Positions 212 through 54,462 of a stretch of 64,000 bases of DNA are shown here, one piece after another. Both the position numbers and the translations under genes were made by a program. The stretch lies in contig NC_083294.1 in assembly GCF_963506605.1 (NCBI RefSeq), positions 38,502,001-38,566,000 of the forward strand, given 5' to 3'. Position 1 is the stretch's first letter, and every line of letters begins with the position of its first letter. Origin of the DNA: Zootoca vivipara. Taxonomy: Eukaryota. Under the pieces are notes generated by a model, which was not told the origin of the DNA, searched no databases, and saw only the letters and a list, made by a program, of their open reading frames with translations.

Positions 212-601
212 CCTTCCAGTAGCACCTTAGAGACCAACTAAGTTTGTCATAGGTATGAGCTTTCGTGTGCATGCACACTTCTTCAGATACACTGAAACAG
301 AAGTCACCAGACTGTTATGTATAGTCAGAGGGTGTGGAGGGGTATTACTCAGAAGGGTGGTGGGAATGGGTGATTGGCTGATAGGAGTGGTTAACCTGTT
401 GACGACTGTTAACGACTGCCATTGGTCTTGCAGGAAAAAACAAAGGGTGAGATGGCATAAGAAAGCTTTATCATGTATAATGATATAAGAATTCAATGTC
501 CTTATTTAGACCAGGTCTCTCAATGGTTTTAAGCTTGGTAATGAGTTGCAATTCAGCAACTTCTCTTTCCAGTCTGTTTCTGAAAATTTTCTGTAGTAAG
601 A
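212..601 (-). mobile_element. Penelope-like element (PLE) copy 1, 3' part: GIY-YIG C-terminus, 3' UTR and hammerhead-bearing terminus
   Basis: The minus strand from 601 down reads ...LQKIFRNRLEREVAELQLITKLKTIERPGLNKDIEFLYHYT* (stop ~471), matching the end of ORF 47517..47816. The terminal sequence is shared with the copies at 47210 and 54373. Confidence 0.9.
253..290 (-). ncRNA. Minimal type-I hammerhead ribozyme motif (PLE-associated)
   Basis: Minus strand: gtat-CTGAAGA-a-gtgtgcatgcacac-GAAA-gc-TC-atac = stem I (4 bp), CUGANGA core, stem II, GAAA, palindromic AGCU stem III, CUC cleavage triplet. Confidence 0.8.
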
Positions 602-2432
602 TAGTGTTGCAGAAGCTATAGAAGTAATGGAGAAATTTGGTCAATTGGCAGGATTCAAATTAAATAGACAAAAAACCAAGGTTATGGCAATGAATATGAC
701 GAAAGAAGAAAAACAGGAATTACAGTTAAAACATGGACTCGACGTGGCTAAAAAGGTAAAATATTTGGGAATATGGATGACAGCAAAGAATATTAATCTT
801 TACAGTGATAATTACGAACAAGTATGGAAGGAAATAAAGAAAGACCTGGAAAGATGGACTAATATGAAAATGTCATTCTTAGGAAGAATTGCAACAATAA
901 AGATGAATGTATTACCTAAGATGTTATTCCTATTTCAAACTATACCTGTGGTTAAAGGTACGAGGCAATTCCAAGAGTGGCAAAAGATTTTATCAAGATT
1001 TGTCTGGCAGGGGAGAAAACCTAGAATAAAACATAAGATTTTGGTAGATAAGAAAGAAAGAGGTGGATTCGCCCTGCCAGACTTGAGACTTTATTATGAA
1101 GCGTCCTGTATCTGTTGGATAAAAGAATGGATAACTCTAGAGAATACGGACTTGTTAGATTTGGAAGGTTTTAACAATAGATTTGGATGGCATGCATATT
1201 TATGTTATGACAAAAAGAAATCACATACCGGGTTTACGAATCATGTGATAAGAAGATCTCTGTACGAGGTGTGGGAAAGAAATAAAAGGCTGTTAGAGAC
1301 TAAAACACCCTGGTGGGTCTCACCAGCAGAGGTATTAACAGTTAAGAAAGTAAATATGGAAAAGAGGCGGGCCACGTATGAGGAAATCTTGACGAAAACT
1401 GAAAAAGGATGGAGTTTAAAACCTTTTGAGGACATTAAAGGAGTGTTAACAGGATGGATAGAATACCATCAAATAAATGATGTGCTTAAAGAAGATAGAA
1501 AAATAGGTTTTGAGGATAAAAGATCCAAATTTCAAATAGAAGTGCTAGAAGGCAAAACAAAGCTTTTGGCAAAGATGTATGATCTGTTGTTGGAGTGGTA
1601 TACAAAAGATGAGTTGACAAAAGAAGTGATGATTAAATGGGCAAAAGATTTGGGGCATAATATTGAATATGATGCGTGGTTGAAATTATGGAATCAAACT
1701 TTAAGATTTACAGCATGTACTGCCTTGAAAGAAAATGTATATAAGATGATGTACAGATGGTATTTAACTCCAGTTAAGTTAGCTAAAATGTATAGAATGG
1801 GTGATAAAAGTTGCTGGAAATGTAAAGAGAAAGATGGTGAATTTTATCATATGTGGTGGACATGCGAAAAAGTTAAAAGATTTTGGGAAAGTTTATATAA
1901 TGAATTGAAAAAGATGTTTAGATATACCTTTCCAAAAAAACCAGAAGCATTTTTGTTAGGAATAATAGGAGGAGAGATTAGAAAAGAAGATCAAACACTG
2001 TTTATGTATGCAACAACCGCGGCTAGGACTTTGTTAGCCCAAAAATGGAAACTACAGGAATTACCTACAATTGTGGAGTGGCAGATAAAAATGATGGACT
2101 ATGCTGAACATGCTAGATTGACATGCAAGATTCGTGACCAGGGGGAGACAAGGTTTCAAAAGGACTGGAGTAAATATGTGGACTATATGGAGAAAAACTG
2201 TAGATCATTAAAAACTCTCGCAGGACTAAAATAAACCTTACGAATTGACCAATATGTTAAAAAAGGAACTGCAAAAAAAGGAATTAACAAGAAACCCGCA
2301 TGAAGGGAGGGGGGGAAGTCATAGCTCGGCGGAGCAAGGTAAAAGATGTGAATATAAGATTTTGTATAAAAGATTGGTTTTGTTAATTTGTTGAATTTGG
2401 AAAATTGGAATAAAATGTATTTAAAAAAAAAA
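602..2432 (+). mobile_element. 5'-truncated L1-clade LINE (young), nested in Penelope copy 1
   Basis: Perfect 20-bp TSD gaaaattttctgtagtaaga at 582..601 and 2433..2452; AATAAA at 2409..2414; A-tail at 2423..2432; intact ORF2 fragment. Confidence 0.95.
627..2234 (+). CDS. L1-clade ORF2p C-terminal fragment (end of RT domain through CCHC zinc knuckle); 5'-truncated
   Basis: 535 aa open frame with L1 motifs: KYLGIW, SFLGRIATIKMNVLPKMLFLFQ, GGFALPDLRLYYEA, CWKC-x8-H-MWWTC. Confidence 0.93.
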   Translation: MEKFGQLAGFKLNRQKTKVMAMNMTKEEKQELQLKHGLDVAKKVKYLGIWMTAKNINLYSDNYEQVWKEIKKDLERWTNMKMSFLGRIATIKMNVLPKMLFLFQTIPVVKGTRQFQEWQKILSRFVWQGRKPRIKHKILVDKKERGGFALPDLRLYYEASCICWIKEWITLENTDLLDLEGFNNRFGWHAYLCYDKKKSHTGFTNHVIRRSLYEVWERNKRLLETKTPWWVSPAEVLTVKKVNMEKRRATYEEILTKTEKGWSLKPFEDIKGVLTGWIEYHQINDVLKEDRKIGFEDKRSKFQIEVLEGKTKLLAKMYDLLLEWYTKDELTKEVMIKWAKDLGHNIEYDAWLKLWNQTLRFTACTALKENVYKMMYRWYLTPVKLAKMYRMGDKSCWKCKEKDGEFYHMWWTCEKVKRFWESLYNELKKMFRYTFPKKPEAFLLGIIGGEIRKEDQTLFMYATTAARTLLAQKWKLQELPTIVEWQIKMMDYAEHARLTCKIRDQGETRFQKDWSKYVDYMEKNCRSLKTLAGLK

Positions 2433-2452
2433 GAAAATTTTCTGTAGTAAGA

Positions 2453-2886
2453 CAGCTACTTTGAGATCTAGTATAGAATGTTCTGGGAGATTGAAGTGTT
2501 TTTCTGTCTTGTGATTCTTGATGTCAGATTTATGTCCATTTATCCTTTGGCGTAGGGTTTGGCCTGTTTGTCCAATATAGAGAGCTGAAGGGCATTGCTG
2601 GCATTTGATGGCATATACAATGTTAGAAGATGAGCAATTAAATAGTCCTGAGATGGTATGTTTGATGTTGTTGGGGCCAGTAATGGTGTTGTCCGGGTGT
2701 ATGTGGCAGCAAAGTTGGCATCTGGGTTTATTACAGGCTCTGGTACCAGTGTCCATGTTAAGTCTGGTGGTGGTATTATTGTGGGTGAGGAGTTGTTTAA
2801 GATTGGGTGGCTGTCTGTAGGCAATGAAAGGTCTTCCTCCCAGAGCTTGAGAAAGAGAACTGCCACTGTCTAGGAGAGGTTGCTGG
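2453..2886 (-). mobile_element. Penelope-like element copy 1, 5' part: GIY-YIG endonuclease coding fragment
   Basis: CNKPRCQLC...FNCSSSNIVYAIKCQQCPSALYIGQTGQTLRQRINGHKSDI...HFNLPEHS is the characteristic PLE GIY-YIG domain; the frame continues at 601 once the L1 is removed. Confidence 0.92.
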
Positions 2887-2889
2887 AAT

Positions 2890-4865
2890 AATATTTTTAA
2901 ATTAACGCAAGCATTTGAAAACACAAGCATTTGAAAACACAAGCATTTGAAAAAGCATTTGAAAACAGGTCACCATGTCTGTACTTTGTTAACAAGTTCA
3001 ACAGATGTAATGGCTTTAACTGTGCATTTACAAAATTTGCTTTATGTACAGAAGGTAGATGTTCCATTTCTGTTCCAAAATCATCACCATTAAGGTCAGC
3101 TGGATATTGCTCTGATAAAGATAAAACTTTTCTCTCCACATCACTTTCAGACATGGTATGTTTCTGCCAAGAAATCCCCCCCCCCGCCAACTGCTTAACA
3201 ACATGGACAGTTAATTATGCTGTAACATTGTCTACTATAATGTAAAACACACAGTTTCTGAAGTAGGCCTCTTCTGGAGTATTAGATCTGTGCCAGCTAA
3301 TTTTTTTTGCCACACAGCTGACATTAACACACAGGCAAAAGATGTCACATATAATAAAACTCCATGGACTTCATTTCTAGTTTTGGTCAAATTTAGTTCT
3401 AAGAGGTCTTCCAGTGCTAATTTAATGTCAGTCAAGTGAGCTGCAATGGCTTTTACACATTCAACACGTTACACATTTGATCATTTAGATTCAGATAATA
3501 AACTTGAAGCTGCCCTCTCCTTTTCTGAGACTCCTCGAAACCTAGCACATGTTCCTGAAAGATGTGATCCCACCTGGAGAGCAGTTTGATGAGTCCTAAA
3601 AAGCTTCCGTTGTTTGAATAATGAATTTGATGGGATGAACTAGTAAAATGCTAGATCACATTCTCCCAAGAAGAGTACTGTACCACATTGATGGTGCTCT
3701 TTAAAAGGTTGTATGTTTCACAGCTTCAGTTTTGATTGACACTTCTAAGATCATGTCAGCTCCTGTCACACACAGCAGGCGCCTTCCTAAGTTCTCACCA
3801 TTCTCTGTGACTATTGCCTTTTTCATGTTTTGGGATCCTGCAGGAAAGTTCCTGCCACTTCCCATTAGATCCCCAGCATTCAGCAGATACCAATGCAGAC
3901 TTTGAAGCAGAAGTGCTAGTCTTGACTGTCTTGTGCCAAAACCATTGACATGGAAAGCAATATAAAACTTGTTTCTGTCGACTCCAGACAAGCCACTCTC
4001 TTACATTAGTGCTTTGAAATGTTAGTATGCTTTCTGGGAAAACTTGATTGGAGATTCTTTTGGGAATGTTTTAGGGAGAAGGATGTCACCGTTCGCAATA
4101 TACTTTTTGAGATGGAAACTTAGTTGTGGTACATCCAGTGTCAAGGCCTACATTATGATTACTCCTCTTATCTTCCAAATTCACTTCCACATGTGTTTGT
4201 ATGCCTGCTTCTTTCTGTTTTCCATTTTCATTTTCTGCATCTGCCCCTTCACCAAAATATTGTGCATGATTACCCAAATAAACCACTCCTTGTTTGGGGA
4301 TGAGGTTTCTAATAGGTTCTTCTTACTCCAATTCTAAAGGTGAGTTCAATGTAAAAAATTTTTATTGAAGCTGCGCTTAATCCAAATGGAAAGAACATTG
4401 AGTTATGATGTCTTTATAAGTAATAGTGAGATAATGAAATGTAAAATTAAGTGATGAAGAAGGGAAATCATCAGGTGCGGCTGAAGGAAGTAAAAAAAAA
4501 AAACCTGCATTAGATATGAATGAATGAATGTAATAAGATGTTTGGAAACTATATGTAAAAATTATACACACACACACAAATGGAAAGATCATTTGTTGAC
4601 TCTTTCCTTCATTTTTCTTGTCTTTCTTCCTCTTGGGCTTATGCTTTAAGAGAATACGTTTTGGAGAGATGATTTATAAGATAATATTTTTAAATCTGGA
4701 GAAAGGAAAAAATGACATTAAGATAAAAAATATATTATATACTAATAATTTGGTGGTAGTAGAAGTAGTGGTAACAGTGGTAGTACACAAGTAGTCATTT
4801 CCCCATACTTTAGTGGTCAAAATTATACCAAATCTGGTACTTTAGTACCAAGTGTGGCAACACTG
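2890..4865 (-). pseudogene. Degenerate hAT-superfamily transposase / fossil autonomous hAT element
   Basis: Frameshifted minus-strand fragments: TTF-type zinc finger REWLVWSRQKQVLYCFPCQWF (~3945..4005); RVECVKAIAAHLTDIKLALEDL; YVTSFACVLMSAVWQKKL; YPADLNGDDFGTEMEH...LFSNACVNLKIL. Lys-rich N-terminal-like stretch ~4590..4660. Possible terminus cagtgttgccac (minus strand) at 4865; that boundary is uncertain. Confidence 0.75.
2908..2968. repeat. 16-bp tandem repeat (caagcatttgaaaaca, ~3.5 copies)
   Basis: Read directly from the sequence. Confidence 0.9.
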
Positions 4866-14979: not shown

Positions 14980-15722
14980 CAGTCATACCTCGATTTAAGT
15001 ACTCTTCGGTCATAGCTGCCAAGTCTCCCATATTCCCTGGGAAACCCCCATTTTTCCAGCTGTTCCCAGGTGGAAAAACAGATTTTTTTGTTTTTCCCCG
15101 GTTTACTTATCAGCCGGGTGAGGCTCCTTCTGCGCATGTCTGGAGTCTCTGGACATGTGCAGAAGTGAATTCTGGCACGGTGGCCATTTTGGAACTGGGC
15201 AGAGCATGCTCAGAAGCGACTTTCGATGCTGCTCTGCCCAGTTCCAAAATGGCTGCAGCGTGACTTCCGTTGCGGCAGCCATTTTGGAACTAGGCAGAGC
15301 AGCATCGAAAGTCGCTTCTGAGCATGCTCTGCCCAGTTCCAAAACGCCAACAGCACTACTTCCGGTCTGCTGATCCCTTATTTTTCTGGCAGGAACTTGG
15401 CAGGTATGTCTTCGGTTTGAGTACTTTCAGTTTAAGTACTCCGCAGGCCCATCTGGAACGGATTAATCCACTTTCCATTACTTTCAATGGGAAAGTTCAC
15501 TTCAGGTTAAGTATGCTTCAGGTTATGTACGGACTTCCGGAACCAATTACACTCATACTTCGGGTTAAGTGCGCTTCAGGTTGAGTACTCTGCGGACCCG
15601 TCTGGAAAGGATTAATCCACTTTCCATTACTTTCAATGGGAAAGTTCGCTTCAGGTTAAGTATGCTTCAGGTTAAGTACAGACTTCCGGAACCGATTGTG
15701 TACTTAAACCGAGGCACCACTG
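14980..15722. mobile_element. Tc1/mariner (pogo/Tigger-like) MITE with a nested hAT MITE
   Basis: TA flanks; TIR cagtcatacctcg.tttaagtac / gtacttaaaccgaggcaccactg; two internal ctggaacggattaatccactttccattac units shared with 58646 and 63244. Confidence 0.88.
15011..15408. mobile_element. hAT MITE (catagctgccaagt TIR family, long variant)
   Basis: TIR catagctgccaagt / acttggcaggtatg; perfect 8-bp TSD tcttcggt at 15003..15010 and 15409..15416. Confidence 0.9.
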
Positions 15723-17675: not shown

Positions 17676-17811
17676 CAGGCATCCCCAAACTGCGGCCCTC
17701 CAGATGTTTTGGCCTACAATTCCCATGATCCCTAGCTAACAGGACCAGTGGTTGGAGAAGATGGGAATTGTAGTCCAAAACATCTGGAGGGCCGAAGTTT
17801 GGGGATGCCTG
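17676..17811. mobile_element. hAT (Charlie-like) MITE inserted in a tRNA-derived SINE head
   Basis: Long TIRs caggcatccccaaact.cggccctccagatgttttgg; TSD ggttagag at 17668..17675 and 17812..17819; host reads tagctcagttggttagagcatggtgctga. Confidence 0.92.
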
Positions 17812-22124: not shown

Positions 22125-22280
22125 ATGACCATCAGTCTCAATACTGAATACAATGATTGGCAGTGGCTCTCCAGGATTTCACATAGGAGTCTCTCCAGCC
22201 CATCTTGGATATACCGGGAATTGAACCTGGGACCTTCTATATTCAAGGCAGATGCTCTACCACTAAGCTACGGTCCTTTC
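22125..22280 (-). mobile_element. tRNA-derived SINE
   Basis: gggaattgaacctgggacc (B box, reverse complement) and gctctaccactaagctac (A box, reverse complement). Confidence 0.7.
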
Positions 22281-31482: not shown

Positions 31483-32361
31483 TGTCAGGGACTGATTGGA
31501 GGAACCAGCTGGAGATAAGGGAAGAAGGTTCAGAGACTGGGGACTTGTGGTGGGGTGACAATGAGTGGTCAGAGGGAGATGACTGGGGAGAGAAGACAGG
31601 GGCGTACCTAGCCCAGCTGGTACTGAGTGTGGCGCCTGTGCAGCACCCCATACAGAGTGTGTGTGCGTGGGATGCCACACATGCGCAGTCCGCAAGGGGC
31701 GCTGCTCGTGTACAGCAGCCCATAATGGGGTGCCGCACAAGAGCGACAGCCTGCAAGGCCACCACACGCCTGTGGCAGCCCGTACGGACTGCACCTGTGT
31801 GGCACCCTATATGGAGTGTGCATGTGCAGGATGCTGCACAGGTGCAGTCCGCACAGGGTGCTGCTGGCGTGCGGCGGCCCCATGGTGCTGCTGGCATGGG
31901 CGGAGGTGAGGGGCGGGCCAGGGTGGGGTGCACTGAGTGTCATCCCCCCCAGGGTGGCACCCAAGATGACCTGCCGCCATTGCCCCCCTTGCTACGCTCC
32001 TGAGAGGTGGTGTCAGAAGCTGAAGAAGTAACAGGGCTTAGTGAGCAGGGATAGTCTGTGGCAGAGAGAAGTCCAGAATCAGAGGCAGAAGCTGAAGCAG
32101 GAAAGAAGGGGGGGCCAAGAGGCAGAGGGTCTCAGGCTGGTGAAGTCTGAGATTGCTTGGGGAAAGCCCTGGGGAGGCGGGGACTTGGACAGCTGTGGGG
32201 AGGGGGAACCTTCAGTCTCTGCAACTGCTTCATAGGGGCAAGACCTACTGAAGAAGAGTTGCTGTGCTCATTAGGCCTGGCACTCCTGTGCAGATCATTT
32301 CTTCTAATAAAGAGTTAACTCCACTTACCTTGTGTGATTTACTGCTGGCTCGCTCTTGACA
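31483..32361 (+). mobile_element. Solo LTR (Gypsy-like) with a nested GC-rich MITE
   Basis: TGTCA...TGACA termini; AATAAA ~55 bp from the 3' end; 5-bp flanks aatag/aaaag (4/5). Confidence 0.7.
31597..32002. mobile_element. GC-rich hAT-like MITE with internal degenerate inverted/tandem units
   Basis: TIR caggggcgtac / ctacgctcctg; repeated gcagtccg(c/t)a, cacccc..atac motifs; TSD degenerate. Confidence 0.65.
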
Positions 32362-47209: not shown

Positions 47210-47793
47210 AGTTTCAGGTAGGTAGCCATGTTCGTCTGAGTCAAAGCAAAATAAAAAAATTCCTTCAGTAGCACCTTAAAGACCAACTAAGTTTTTATTT
47301 TGGTATGAGCTTTCGTGTGCATGCACACTTCTTCAGATACACTTGAAACAGAAGAGTCAGACCCTTATGTATATACAGAGGGTGGTGGGTGGTGGTGGGG
47401 AATGGGTGATGGGCTGATAGGAGTGGTAAACCTGTTGATGGCTGTTAACGACTGCTGATGACTGCAATTGGTTCTGCGGGGGAAAAACAAAGGCTGAGGC
47501 GCTAAAGAAAGCTTGATCATGCATAATGAGATAAGAATCCTATGTCTTTGTTCATCCCAGGTGGCTCCATGGTTTTAAGCTTGGTAATGAGTTCCAATTC
47601 AGCAACTTCTCTTTCCAGTCTGTTTCTGAAAAATTTCTGTAATAAAACAGCTGCTTTGAGATCTTGTATAGAATGTCCTGGGAGATTGAAGTGTTCTCCT
47701 ACTGGTTTCTCTGTCCTGTGGTTCCTGATGTCAGATTTATGTCCATTTATCATTTGGCGTAGGGTTTGGCCTGTTTGTCCAATATAGAAAATA
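47210..47793 (-). mobile_element. Penelope-like element copy 2 (5'-truncated)
   Basis: YIGQTGQTLRQMINGHKSDIRNHRTEKPVGEHFNLPGHS...; 11-bp TSD taaaaaatgat at 47199..47209 and 47794..47804. Confidence 0.92.
47303..47340 (-). ncRNA. Minimal type-I hammerhead ribozyme motif (PLE-associated)
   Basis: Identical 38-nt motif to 253..290. Confidence 0.8.
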
Positions 47794-48063
47794 TAAAAAA
47801 TGATGTTGTTGAACATTCGGTGCCCAGTCCAGAATAATTCAGTTGTATTTGGCTGAGTTTACATGTGCTAAAAATTTCTGCTTTATAGCATAATCTATGT
47901 AAGTTCATTTGGCTAGAAGCTGCATAAGCTCATTTTTTTATATTTTTTCCTAGGTAGTGAACCAGTGCTTCTTGATCTTTAAATTGGTGCAAATGTTCAT
48001 TTGTGTCAGGATAAAAAGGGGCTATAATATTCTGCAAACTTCAAAAAAAAGCTCCATTGCTAG

Positions 48064-52748: not shown

Positions 52749-54372
52749 CAACATTTATCCAAACATGGCTTCCAGGATAGTGTAAATAATAATTCCAGAC
52801 ATTAATGCAATATGAAAATAATAATGATCAAAATGAGATCAATACCAGAGCTATCCAGCCAACTAAAACATTGCAGGGAATCTGAAAACTTGGGCATTTT
52901 AGACCTATCGAGCCCAAAAATGCTTATGTTTCTGGTTGTTTTTTTTTTTGCAGGGCAGGGTAGGTGGGGGAATAAATGGCCTTTATATTGATTTGTGATT
53001 CTTTGGCTCCAGTAGGATGGTTGCAGACAAACTGTATTGTAGTGGGGGTAGTAGTCTGGGTCCATTCCGATAGACCCAGAAACTCCCTCCCTGTAAAAAA
53101 AACAAAAACAAAATGAGAGTTTGTCAACAGAGAAGTTAAGTAAACCAGCAACTGGCACTGTCAATGAGTCTCTTGCCCAGGGGATGGCAGGCTGGTGCGA
53201 GAACATTGATTTCTGCCTTGCGATAACTTCTTTGATTAGGAGCCTGCTTGGCTGCAGACTCTGGTGTTTGAAAGCACCAGTTCTAACTTTTGCTGCTGGC
53301 TGATCCATCTGAGAGGTAAGTGGAGGTAGGAAGCAAAACTTGGGAGAGAATCTGTAGAGAGTGTGAATCTCCTGGCAGAATTTTCCTACTCCATTTCTTC
53401 CATCCTCTGTGTCCATAGGAAGGGCTTGTCTATTTCTGATTCGTATCAAAGCCAGGTGAAGGAATTGGAAGTGTACGTAGTTGTGAGGGTGGCGTAGCTG
53501 TGAACAGAGCAGGGCTGGGGAACCTGTGGCCTGTCACTGGGACTCCCAACTCTCACCAGCTTGTCAGCTGATTGCTATTGGTCCATGTGGGGTGCTGGGA
53601 GCTGAATTACAACATATGGATGGTCAAAGGTTCCCCATCCATGAGTGTGTCAAGGCTTGGACCAGGGAGACTTCAGCTGCATTTGGACCCCCATTTTCTG
53701 TGCCCTCACAATGTTCCCAATGCTGGATTTTTAACCCATGCTAATCCAGCACTTTTTTATATATATAAAGTGCTGCTGTTCGATGTTTTTGTTGCTCAAA
53801 CCAGCTTAGATTCAGTTGGAATCCTTAAGCCATTCTTAATTCACATCTAGCCAAGTTGCGGGCACACTTTGCACAGGGTAAAGACATCCCCAATGTGTCA
53901 ATGCCCCTGGTGTGTCTGCAAACAGAAAAGGACTCTGGCTCCAATGAATCTGTGCTGATGTGAACAGCTTTAGGTGTGGGTGTGGGAAGAGTTGCGAAAT
54001 GTACTGGGGAAAGAAACCTTCAACTTCACTGCCCTCTAAGATGGTGATGTGAACACACCGTTTGCTTCTAAATTCCTAAATCTGATGAGAGCCTTGTCCT
54101 ACCTTGCAAGCTTGGTTATGAATAAATTGGGTGGCGGGGAGAGACACAAATGCCACATTGAGTAAGGATGGGATAAAATGAAGTAAAGTATTTGTGTGCT
54201 GTGATGCGTTGAAAGGGAGGTTTGTGTGAAAAGTGAAACTGAAGATTGCAATGCAATTAGTCCAAAAGAACTGGTTAGTGTAGTGGTAAGAGAGAAAACC
54301 GCTAGTTCAATATTACATCTCCTCATTCATGAGATGACTCCAAGCAATCCTTTCTTACTGGGTTGTGGTGCA

Positions 54373-54462
54373 AAATAAAAAAATTCCTTCAGTAGCACCT
54401 TAAAGACCAACTAAGTTTATATTTTGGTATGAGCTTTTGTGTGCATGCACACTTCTTTAGAT
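54373..54462 (-). mobile_element. Solo 90-bp Penelope 3' terminus with decayed hammerhead
   Basis: 14-bp TSD tgggttgtggtgca at 54359..54372 and 54463..54476; the sequence matches ~47250..47338; core mutated to CTAAAGA and AAAA. Confidence 0.88.

Follow-up and report, generated by a model that had tools for sequence, protein, structure and literature searches.

Two identical copies of a 38-nt motif lie on the minus strand of the window (the whole stretch of 64,000 nucleotides of Zootoca vivipara DNA that was analysed), and this motif is best explained as a minimal type-I hammerhead ribozyme carried by the pseudo-LTR of a Penelope-like element of the Neptune type, whose capped RNA it likely opens with its own first base. 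We assign this reading a probability of roughly 70%. As a ribozyme, it is nothing unusual among Penelope-like elements and falls within a published class, for which a turtle homologue is already listed (PMC4209133).

The hammerhead motif and its host element

The first copy of the motif (253..290, minus strand) is identified by its sequence, its predicted fold and its agreement with the consensus of PMC4209133. Its stem I is formed by positions 290-287 pairing with 256-253; the core CUGAAGA occupies 286-280 and is followed by an extra A at 279; stem II pairs 278-274 with 269-265 around a loop at 273-270; GAAA is found at 264-261 and the helix III palindrome AGCU at 261-258, with the predicted cut between 257 and 256. 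The second copy (47303..47340, minus strand; predicted cut between 47307 and 47306) is the same in all 38 of 38 bases, just as the initial annotation had read it from the minus strand. Both invariant core segments (C3-U-G-A-N-G-A9 and G12-A-A-A15.1) are present, and in the predicted fold of the monomer a 4-bp helix I closes the motif while a 5-bp helix II carries the G10.1-C11.1 pair. The other hallmarks of minimal hammerheads are found as well, namely the extra A between positions 9 and 10.1, AGCU as the palindromic 15.2-16.2 segment, and CUC as the NUH cleavage triplet. The genome search that had been proposed was carried out as a pattern search and recovered 13,219 exact matches of the 38-mer in the 1.44-Gb genome, while the reversed control gave none; the motif is therefore not a product of chance. 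A scan with the curated Rfam models returned no hammerhead among its 8 matches at E<=1; the Rfam hammerhead models expect a full helix III.

The assignment to a minimal type-I hammerhead of a Penelope-like element is borne out by the core, the stems and the adjacent pieces of a GIY-YIG ORF. The CUC triplet and the extra A after the core, both singled out by the initial annotation, are indeed in the sequence, yet they are traits of the published consensus rather than a new design (Cervera and De la Pena 2014; PMC4209133). That study describes a class of minimal hammerheads with an extra base after A9, a palindromic 15.2-16.2 segment and low cleavage as dimers, and it stresses the high variability of these motifs inside genomes. 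The lizard motif shares with this class the type I topology, the CUGANGA core, the extra base between 9 and 10.1, the G10.1-C11.1 pair, the loopless palindrome, a 4-bp helix I and the location in a pseudo-LTR. Closest to it stands the row for Chrysemys picta bellii in Fig. S3 of PMC4209133, with the same core, extra A, AGCU and A-rich 3' flank, and with compensatory changes in the stems; the lizard motif differs from this turtle motif in its other stem and loop letters, in having CUC instead of CUU, and in its palindromic loop II. It also differs from the published examples in its 13,219 identical copies, and the accessible text of that paper has neither a lizard row nor a mapping of the start site.

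Since their flanks are unrelated and they fall into different sequence clusters, copies 1 and 2 represent separate insertions, as had been claimed. The divergence of their flanking UTRs holds too: upstream of the motif, they differ at 38 of 164 aligned sites and in 28 gap columns, and a direct comparison of the two copies gives 0/38 differences in the motif against 12/75 in the ORF end and 10/43 downstream. A third, decayed copy had been overlooked in the initial annotation. It belongs to a 93-nt insertion (54370..54462, minus strand; motif at 54427-54462) that begins at motif base 3, is bounded by a 13-bp target-site duplication and has its core broken by G5>A and G12>A.

An intact representative of the host element was found at the locus L018, where positions 1075-3849 (minus strand) contain a stop-to-stop frame of 925 residues with Pfam matches to RVT_1 (6.5e-12) and GIY-YIG (6.2e-05). 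The frame carries a DKG and a YIDD motif and a CxxxxCxxC linker (residues 785-793). It thus has the organisation of an endonuclease-containing (EN+) Penelope-like element, a single ORF with reverse transcriptase plus a GIY-YIG domain at its C terminus, and the fragments in the window match it. A CX2-5CxxC linker between reverse transcriptase and endonuclease marks the Neptune and Nematis groups and is shared by Naiad (PMC8557442); judged by this linker motif, which it has in common with Nematis and Naiad, the host element is of the Neptune type. At L018 and L012, the intact ORF and the near-identical copies in tandem or inverted arrangement show a very young subfamily.

Copy 1 comprises a pseudo-LTR/UTR segment with the last GIY-YIG codons (291..599, minus strand; stop at 471-473; tblastn identity of 81.8% to residues 882-925 of the L018 ORF) and an upstream part encoding the linker and the GIY-YIG domain (2433..2882, minus strand; 92.1% to residues 736-887), which is split from the remainder by a later insertion. 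This interrupting element is a 5'-truncated LINE on the plus strand (600-2432) with an open frame of ~550 codons and an identical 19-nt stretch on both flanks; from its C-terminal cysteine motif, we take it to be L1-like. In copy 2, the pseudo-LTR/UTR is joined to a 5'-truncated, frameshifted GIY-YIG end (47341..47858, minus strand; 70.4% to L018 residues 803-925). Downstream of the motif, copy 1 retains a conserved block that can form a short hairpin (217..244, minus strand), for which 31,292 exact matches exist in the genome, and copy 2 has the same block (47266-47293, minus strand) followed by a U-rich tract and a tail of ~30 nt (47215..47293 as a whole, minus strand). This tail, whose sequence leads into the beginning of the following ORF frame, ends 126 nt past the first base of the hammerhead. 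A C/U variant of the block's hairpin retains the pair as G-U. The block is a candidate binding site for the protein of the element.

Both motif copies in the window come after the end of a GIY-YIG frame, and at a tandem junction in L012 the motif stands upstream of the next ORF, which places it in the pseudo-LTR. Its previous description as a 3'-terminal feature of Penelope elements needs to be divided: it holds for the position in truncated DNA copies, but in the transcript the motif likely lies at +1, with the first in-frame ATG ~140 nt after motif base 1. The further structural marks of EN+ Penelope-like elements are seen at L012, L014 and L018 (a pseudo-LTR, partial tandems, an inverted 5'-truncated partner and a tail of 30-40 nt), and in a sample of 113 copies located by means of the downstream block, an inverted partner accompanies 48 and a tail is present in 55. 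L014 (C1:2776500-2781000) is a retrozyme-like array of four tandem units with a period of 598 bp, each consisting of ORF end, pseudo-LTR, hammerhead and ORF start. Its tandem units with one hammerhead each resemble non-LTR retrozymes (bioRxiv 10.64898/2026.07.22.740005); the family does not qualify as such, as it is not built of non-coding tandem units: the window copies are dispersed and accompanied by ORF pieces, and the L014 array also contains ORF sequence.

Several further observations were made in and around the window. A GIY-YIG fragment with 55% identity to the L018 ORF is located ~6 kb to the left of it (L021, 969-1115). A pattern search for an ACGU-type (Poseidon-like) family gave 8 matches compared with 71 for the reversed control, and hence no such family at that pattern. 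Hammerhead-like core words at L023 and L024 have a poor stem II and a pattern count below that of the control, so they are probably due to chance; they sit in what we presume to be the beginning of a LINE of the RTE/BovB type. Long inverted repeats make up fold-back elements at 15165-15364, 17676-17811 and 31757-31879; the first two give sub-threshold Rfam miRNA matches and are MITE-like in appearance. A tRNA-like match above the Rfam gathering score (22206-22277, minus strand; 37.5 bits) is perhaps the head of a SINE.

The start of the RNA and the ends of DNA copies

Genome-wide junction patterns required four mismatching flank bases, left position -1 uncounted and are not identical in the subfamilies that they cover. 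At the 5' edge of the motif they gave 306 junctions at -2, 199 at 0, 1,452 at +1 and 449 at +2, and around the predicted cut 27 one base before it, 48 at it and 23 one base after it, with no clear peak. Corrected for chance agreement of the flanks, these numbers correspond to ~1,060 (-2), ~950 (0), ~5,460 (+1) and ~1,550 (+2) copies versus ~140 at the cut. The cut site was rejected as the source of the 5' ends of copies, with 48 junctions there against 1,452 at +1.

Directly before the +1 junction, a G is found in 811 of the 1,452 cases, against an expectation of 30%; the corresponding figures are 7/48 at the cut site and 11 of the 100 junctions listed at -2, and among the positions where the pattern allowed a G, the excess is confined to +1. 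In work on L1, a 5' G without a template is interpreted as the copy of a cap (PMC9341517). Ten of the first 30 +1 loci possess target-site duplications (three with one G outside the duplication, three with a G inside, four with 2-5 bases in between), in another two the G lacks a template in the inverted partner, and a tail was detected in eight, whose lengths are 126-132 nt. A TATA-like box precedes the motif in both window copies: in copy 1 (315..323, minus strand), the hammerhead begins 31 nt after the start of TACATAA, and the spacing is the same in copy 2 (47364..47375, minus strand). Such a box stands 31 nt upstream of the motif in 66 of those 83 ORF-anchored copies in which the motif start is readable, and CCAAT-like motifs lie farther upstream of it. 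The Drosophila Penelope promoter is described as TATA-less (PMC2377424); the pseudo-LTRs of the rotifer Adineta Penelope elements (PMC3846280), on the other hand, resemble the lizard element in having a TATA box with an Inr-like sequence, an inverted arrangement and a tail. It is because of the +1 junctions, the preceding G and the TATA spacing that we consider the motif likely to open a capped transcript and the insertions likely to derive from uncut RNA.

In the sample of 113 copies, 25 end at -10..+5, 28 at +6..+33, 2 at +34..+36 and 25 at the ORF anchor or the end of the locus; the aligner set only 3 of the 113 exactly at +1, fewer than the corrected genome estimate of ~5,500 implies. The bases upstream of the motif resemble a 3' splice site in three of the sequence clusters; splicing as the cause of the +1 peak was rejected, given that the youngest cluster has CAC and not YAG, that the peak is at +1 and not at 0, and that the flanks are mixed.

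The +1 peak could also have been created by microhomology joins, through the arms of stem I or a repeated GAAGTG, or by terminal additions of the reverse transcriptase at an uncapped end. About one sixth of the 100 +1 junctions listed are, as judged by eye, recognisable repeats of the element, and the frequency of inverted partners (48/113) would suit such joins. Nevertheless, the mixed flanks, the target-site duplications, the single extra G bases, the restriction of the G excess to +1 and the fixed TATA spacing argue against this explanation, which we regard as unlikely.

In three RNA runs (~6% of each), no pile of starts or ends occurs at the cut site or at +1, although libraries of this kind resolve ends poorly; 52-89% of the placed reads stem from copies embedded in other RNAs, which also provide most of the depth over the motif, and the depth at the ORF start is 0-11. 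The accessible texts of PMC3846280 and of the retrozyme preprint neither tie a start site to the first base of a hammerhead nor report a cap-derived G, and no paper placing the start there with such a G was found in a search that most subscription journals lay outside of.

Conservation of the hammerhead fold

Conservation was assessed in a sample drawn through an ORF anchor (3,859 matches), and thus independently of the motif; like all samples of copies used here, it consists of the first places listed on contig C1. From 98 ORF-anchored segments (96 loci and two in the window), 7 that were too dissimilar upstream of the motif and 2 duplicates from an array were removed, and the resulting 89 copies were clustered on the ORF end and UTR only, which yielded clusters of 37, 20, 13 and 10 copies (80 in total) with 9 copies outside. 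The comparison of motif and UTR across copies that the initial annotation had called for came out in favour of the motif, which is the better conserved across subfamilies: among the majority sequences of the four clusters, 1 of its 38 gap-free columns varies, compared with 58 of 144 in the UTR (Fisher p=1.3e-6), and against the same 1/38 the varying columns amount to 14/75 in the ORF end (p=0.018) and 8/43 downstream (p=0.032).

The sole variable column is N7, the free position of the core. In the genome at large, 1,833 copies have C, U or G at N7, compared with 57 copies changed at the neighbouring invariant A6; the N7 difference represents one or two events in one lineage and is therefore weaker than these counts suggest, and the U at N7 may reflect CpG decay of C. 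A search for stem II variants gave 170 matches; apart from two older relatives, L235 and L236, each of the 100 listed shows a single mutation or a small deletion. These retain all core bases and AGCU, while both sides of a pair have changed in stem I as well as in stem II. Both are turtle-like hammerheads with a CUU triplet and a 6-bp stem II, and neither has an ORF match within 2.1 kb. Contigs of a second organism span the motif without a listed difference, and part of their UTR fails to align; in this comparison one run covers the motif and three others (X13, X14, X19) do not.

Since single insertions decay, with the CpG at 11.1/12 changed in 9 and 7 of the 89 copies, the constraint is assigned to the source elements; the sequence comparisons support selection acting on these, and its pattern fits the hammerhead fold. 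As the neighbouring block is conserved too, promoter function or protein binding may account for some of the constraint.

Taken to its end, this last thought would mean that the motif persists chiefly for a promoter-downstream or protein-binding role at the 5' end of the RNA, with cutting lost in the lineage. The motif begins where the RNA is inferred to start, conservation extends over the 45 nt that follow (0/45 differences among three of the four clusters), and neither the DNA junctions nor the RNA reads give a sign of cut ends; moreover, when the anole protein was assayed in vitro, ribozyme mutants did not alter insertion (PMC11167929), and Naiad elements spread although they lack a canonical hammerhead (PMC8557442). 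However, the only change tolerated is the one at the free core position, and the older relatives alter pairs on both sides while keeping every catalytic base, as selection on a hammerhead fold would produce; we regard this alternative as very improbable.

Helix III, the stem II palindrome and the place of cutting

As had been recognised from the outset, helix III consists only of the palindrome AGCU; it is loopless, and both sequence and fold prediction indicate that a monomer cannot close it. Dimer cleavage by hammerheads of Penelope-like elements is the subject of work by Lunse et al., summarised in PMC6765202. The step to an 'obligate dimer' is a matter of analogy, and in its RNA-only form, in which the palindromes of stem II and helix III aid pairing, cutting sets the end of the element and cleaved RNA serves as the template, it is improbable in our estimate. 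It can point to the unclosed helix III, to CAUG as the majority loop in all four clusters, to the published, if low, dimer activity of related motifs (PMC4209133) and to the 598-bp tandem array at L014 with its single motif per unit. Against it stand the 48 junctions at the cut site, compared with 27 and 23 at the adjacent positions and 1,452 at +1, as well as the stem II palindrome itself. The self-complementarity of stem II had been read as a sign of an active dimer, but the palindrome is absent from L235, L236, the turtle motif and the anole element, whose loops are non-palindromic; any perfect stem is self-complementary, and a palindromic loop of 4 nt arises with a chance of ~1 in 16. Furthermore, the predicted energies (-28.0 kcal/mol for the 14-bp stem II duplex, -11.1 for the double hammerhead joined through helix III and -12.0 for two monomers) make this duplex 17 kcal/mol more stable than the helix III dimer, with which it would compete. 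Judged from these models, a complex of two molecules joined by the stem II duplex could hardly contain two active cores, and the duplex may slow cutting rather than help it.

The best-studied counterpart is the Poseidon element of Anolis carolinensis (PAc, Poseidon_Ac), whose hammerhead cuts only with the protein of the element (Frangieh et al. 2024; PMC11167929). Its reverse transcription starts internally, uncut RNA is used in vitro, and cutting is dispensable for insertion. The lizard element resembles PAc in its minimal hammerhead at the junction of pseudo-LTR and ORF, in the apparent use of an uncut RNA template, in two 3' ends ~30-40 nt apart (the tail) and in the lack of RNA-seq ends at the site. 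PAc belongs to the Poseidon clade and has an ACGU palindrome and a start codon inside the motif, whereas the element studied here has a Neptune-type linker, AGCU and a first in-frame ATG well beyond the motif.

In the reading that we favour, that of a hammerhead opening a capped RNA, a TATA-type promoter in the pseudo-LTR would start this RNA at motif base 1, and a full-length RNA from tandem elements would carry one hammerhead at its 5' end and another near its 3' end. By analogy with the related systems, the two motifs could pair via AGCU, complete helix III and cut slowly after CUC, probably assisted by the protein of the element; cutting would remove the cap and could free an RNA of unit length. 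Most new DNA copies, however, would be templated by uncut RNA. Reverse transcription would start internally, at the U-rich tract or at the end of the tail, ~90 or ~126-132 nt into the RNA; run-off at the cap would leave short copies that begin with motif base 1, a large number of them preceded by an additional G, and read-through or circular RNA would give longer ones. Because most new copies seem to derive from uncut RNA, cutting is regarded as a side step (in processing, circle formation or shut-off) and not as the maker of the template 5' end.

A bolder version of this scheme, which we offer as speculation and think rather doubtful, has the promoter firing exactly at hammerhead base 1 and thousands of copies arising as cap-to-tail run-offs of uncut RNA. 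The ribozyme would then be a delayed, protein-gated switch, decapping or circularising the RNA by pairing its 5' and 3' ends, and the 14-nt palindrome of stem II would keep two RNAs in an inactive duplex that supplies the paired head-to-head insertions.

The genomic record of this lizard family points to an exact start site and to copying from uncut RNA, and as such it provides a genome-level parallel to what was found in vitro for the anole element. With a young family that has intact ORFs and a predicted start site, the question of what these hammerheads do in the cell (PMC8557442, PMC11167929) becomes directly testable.
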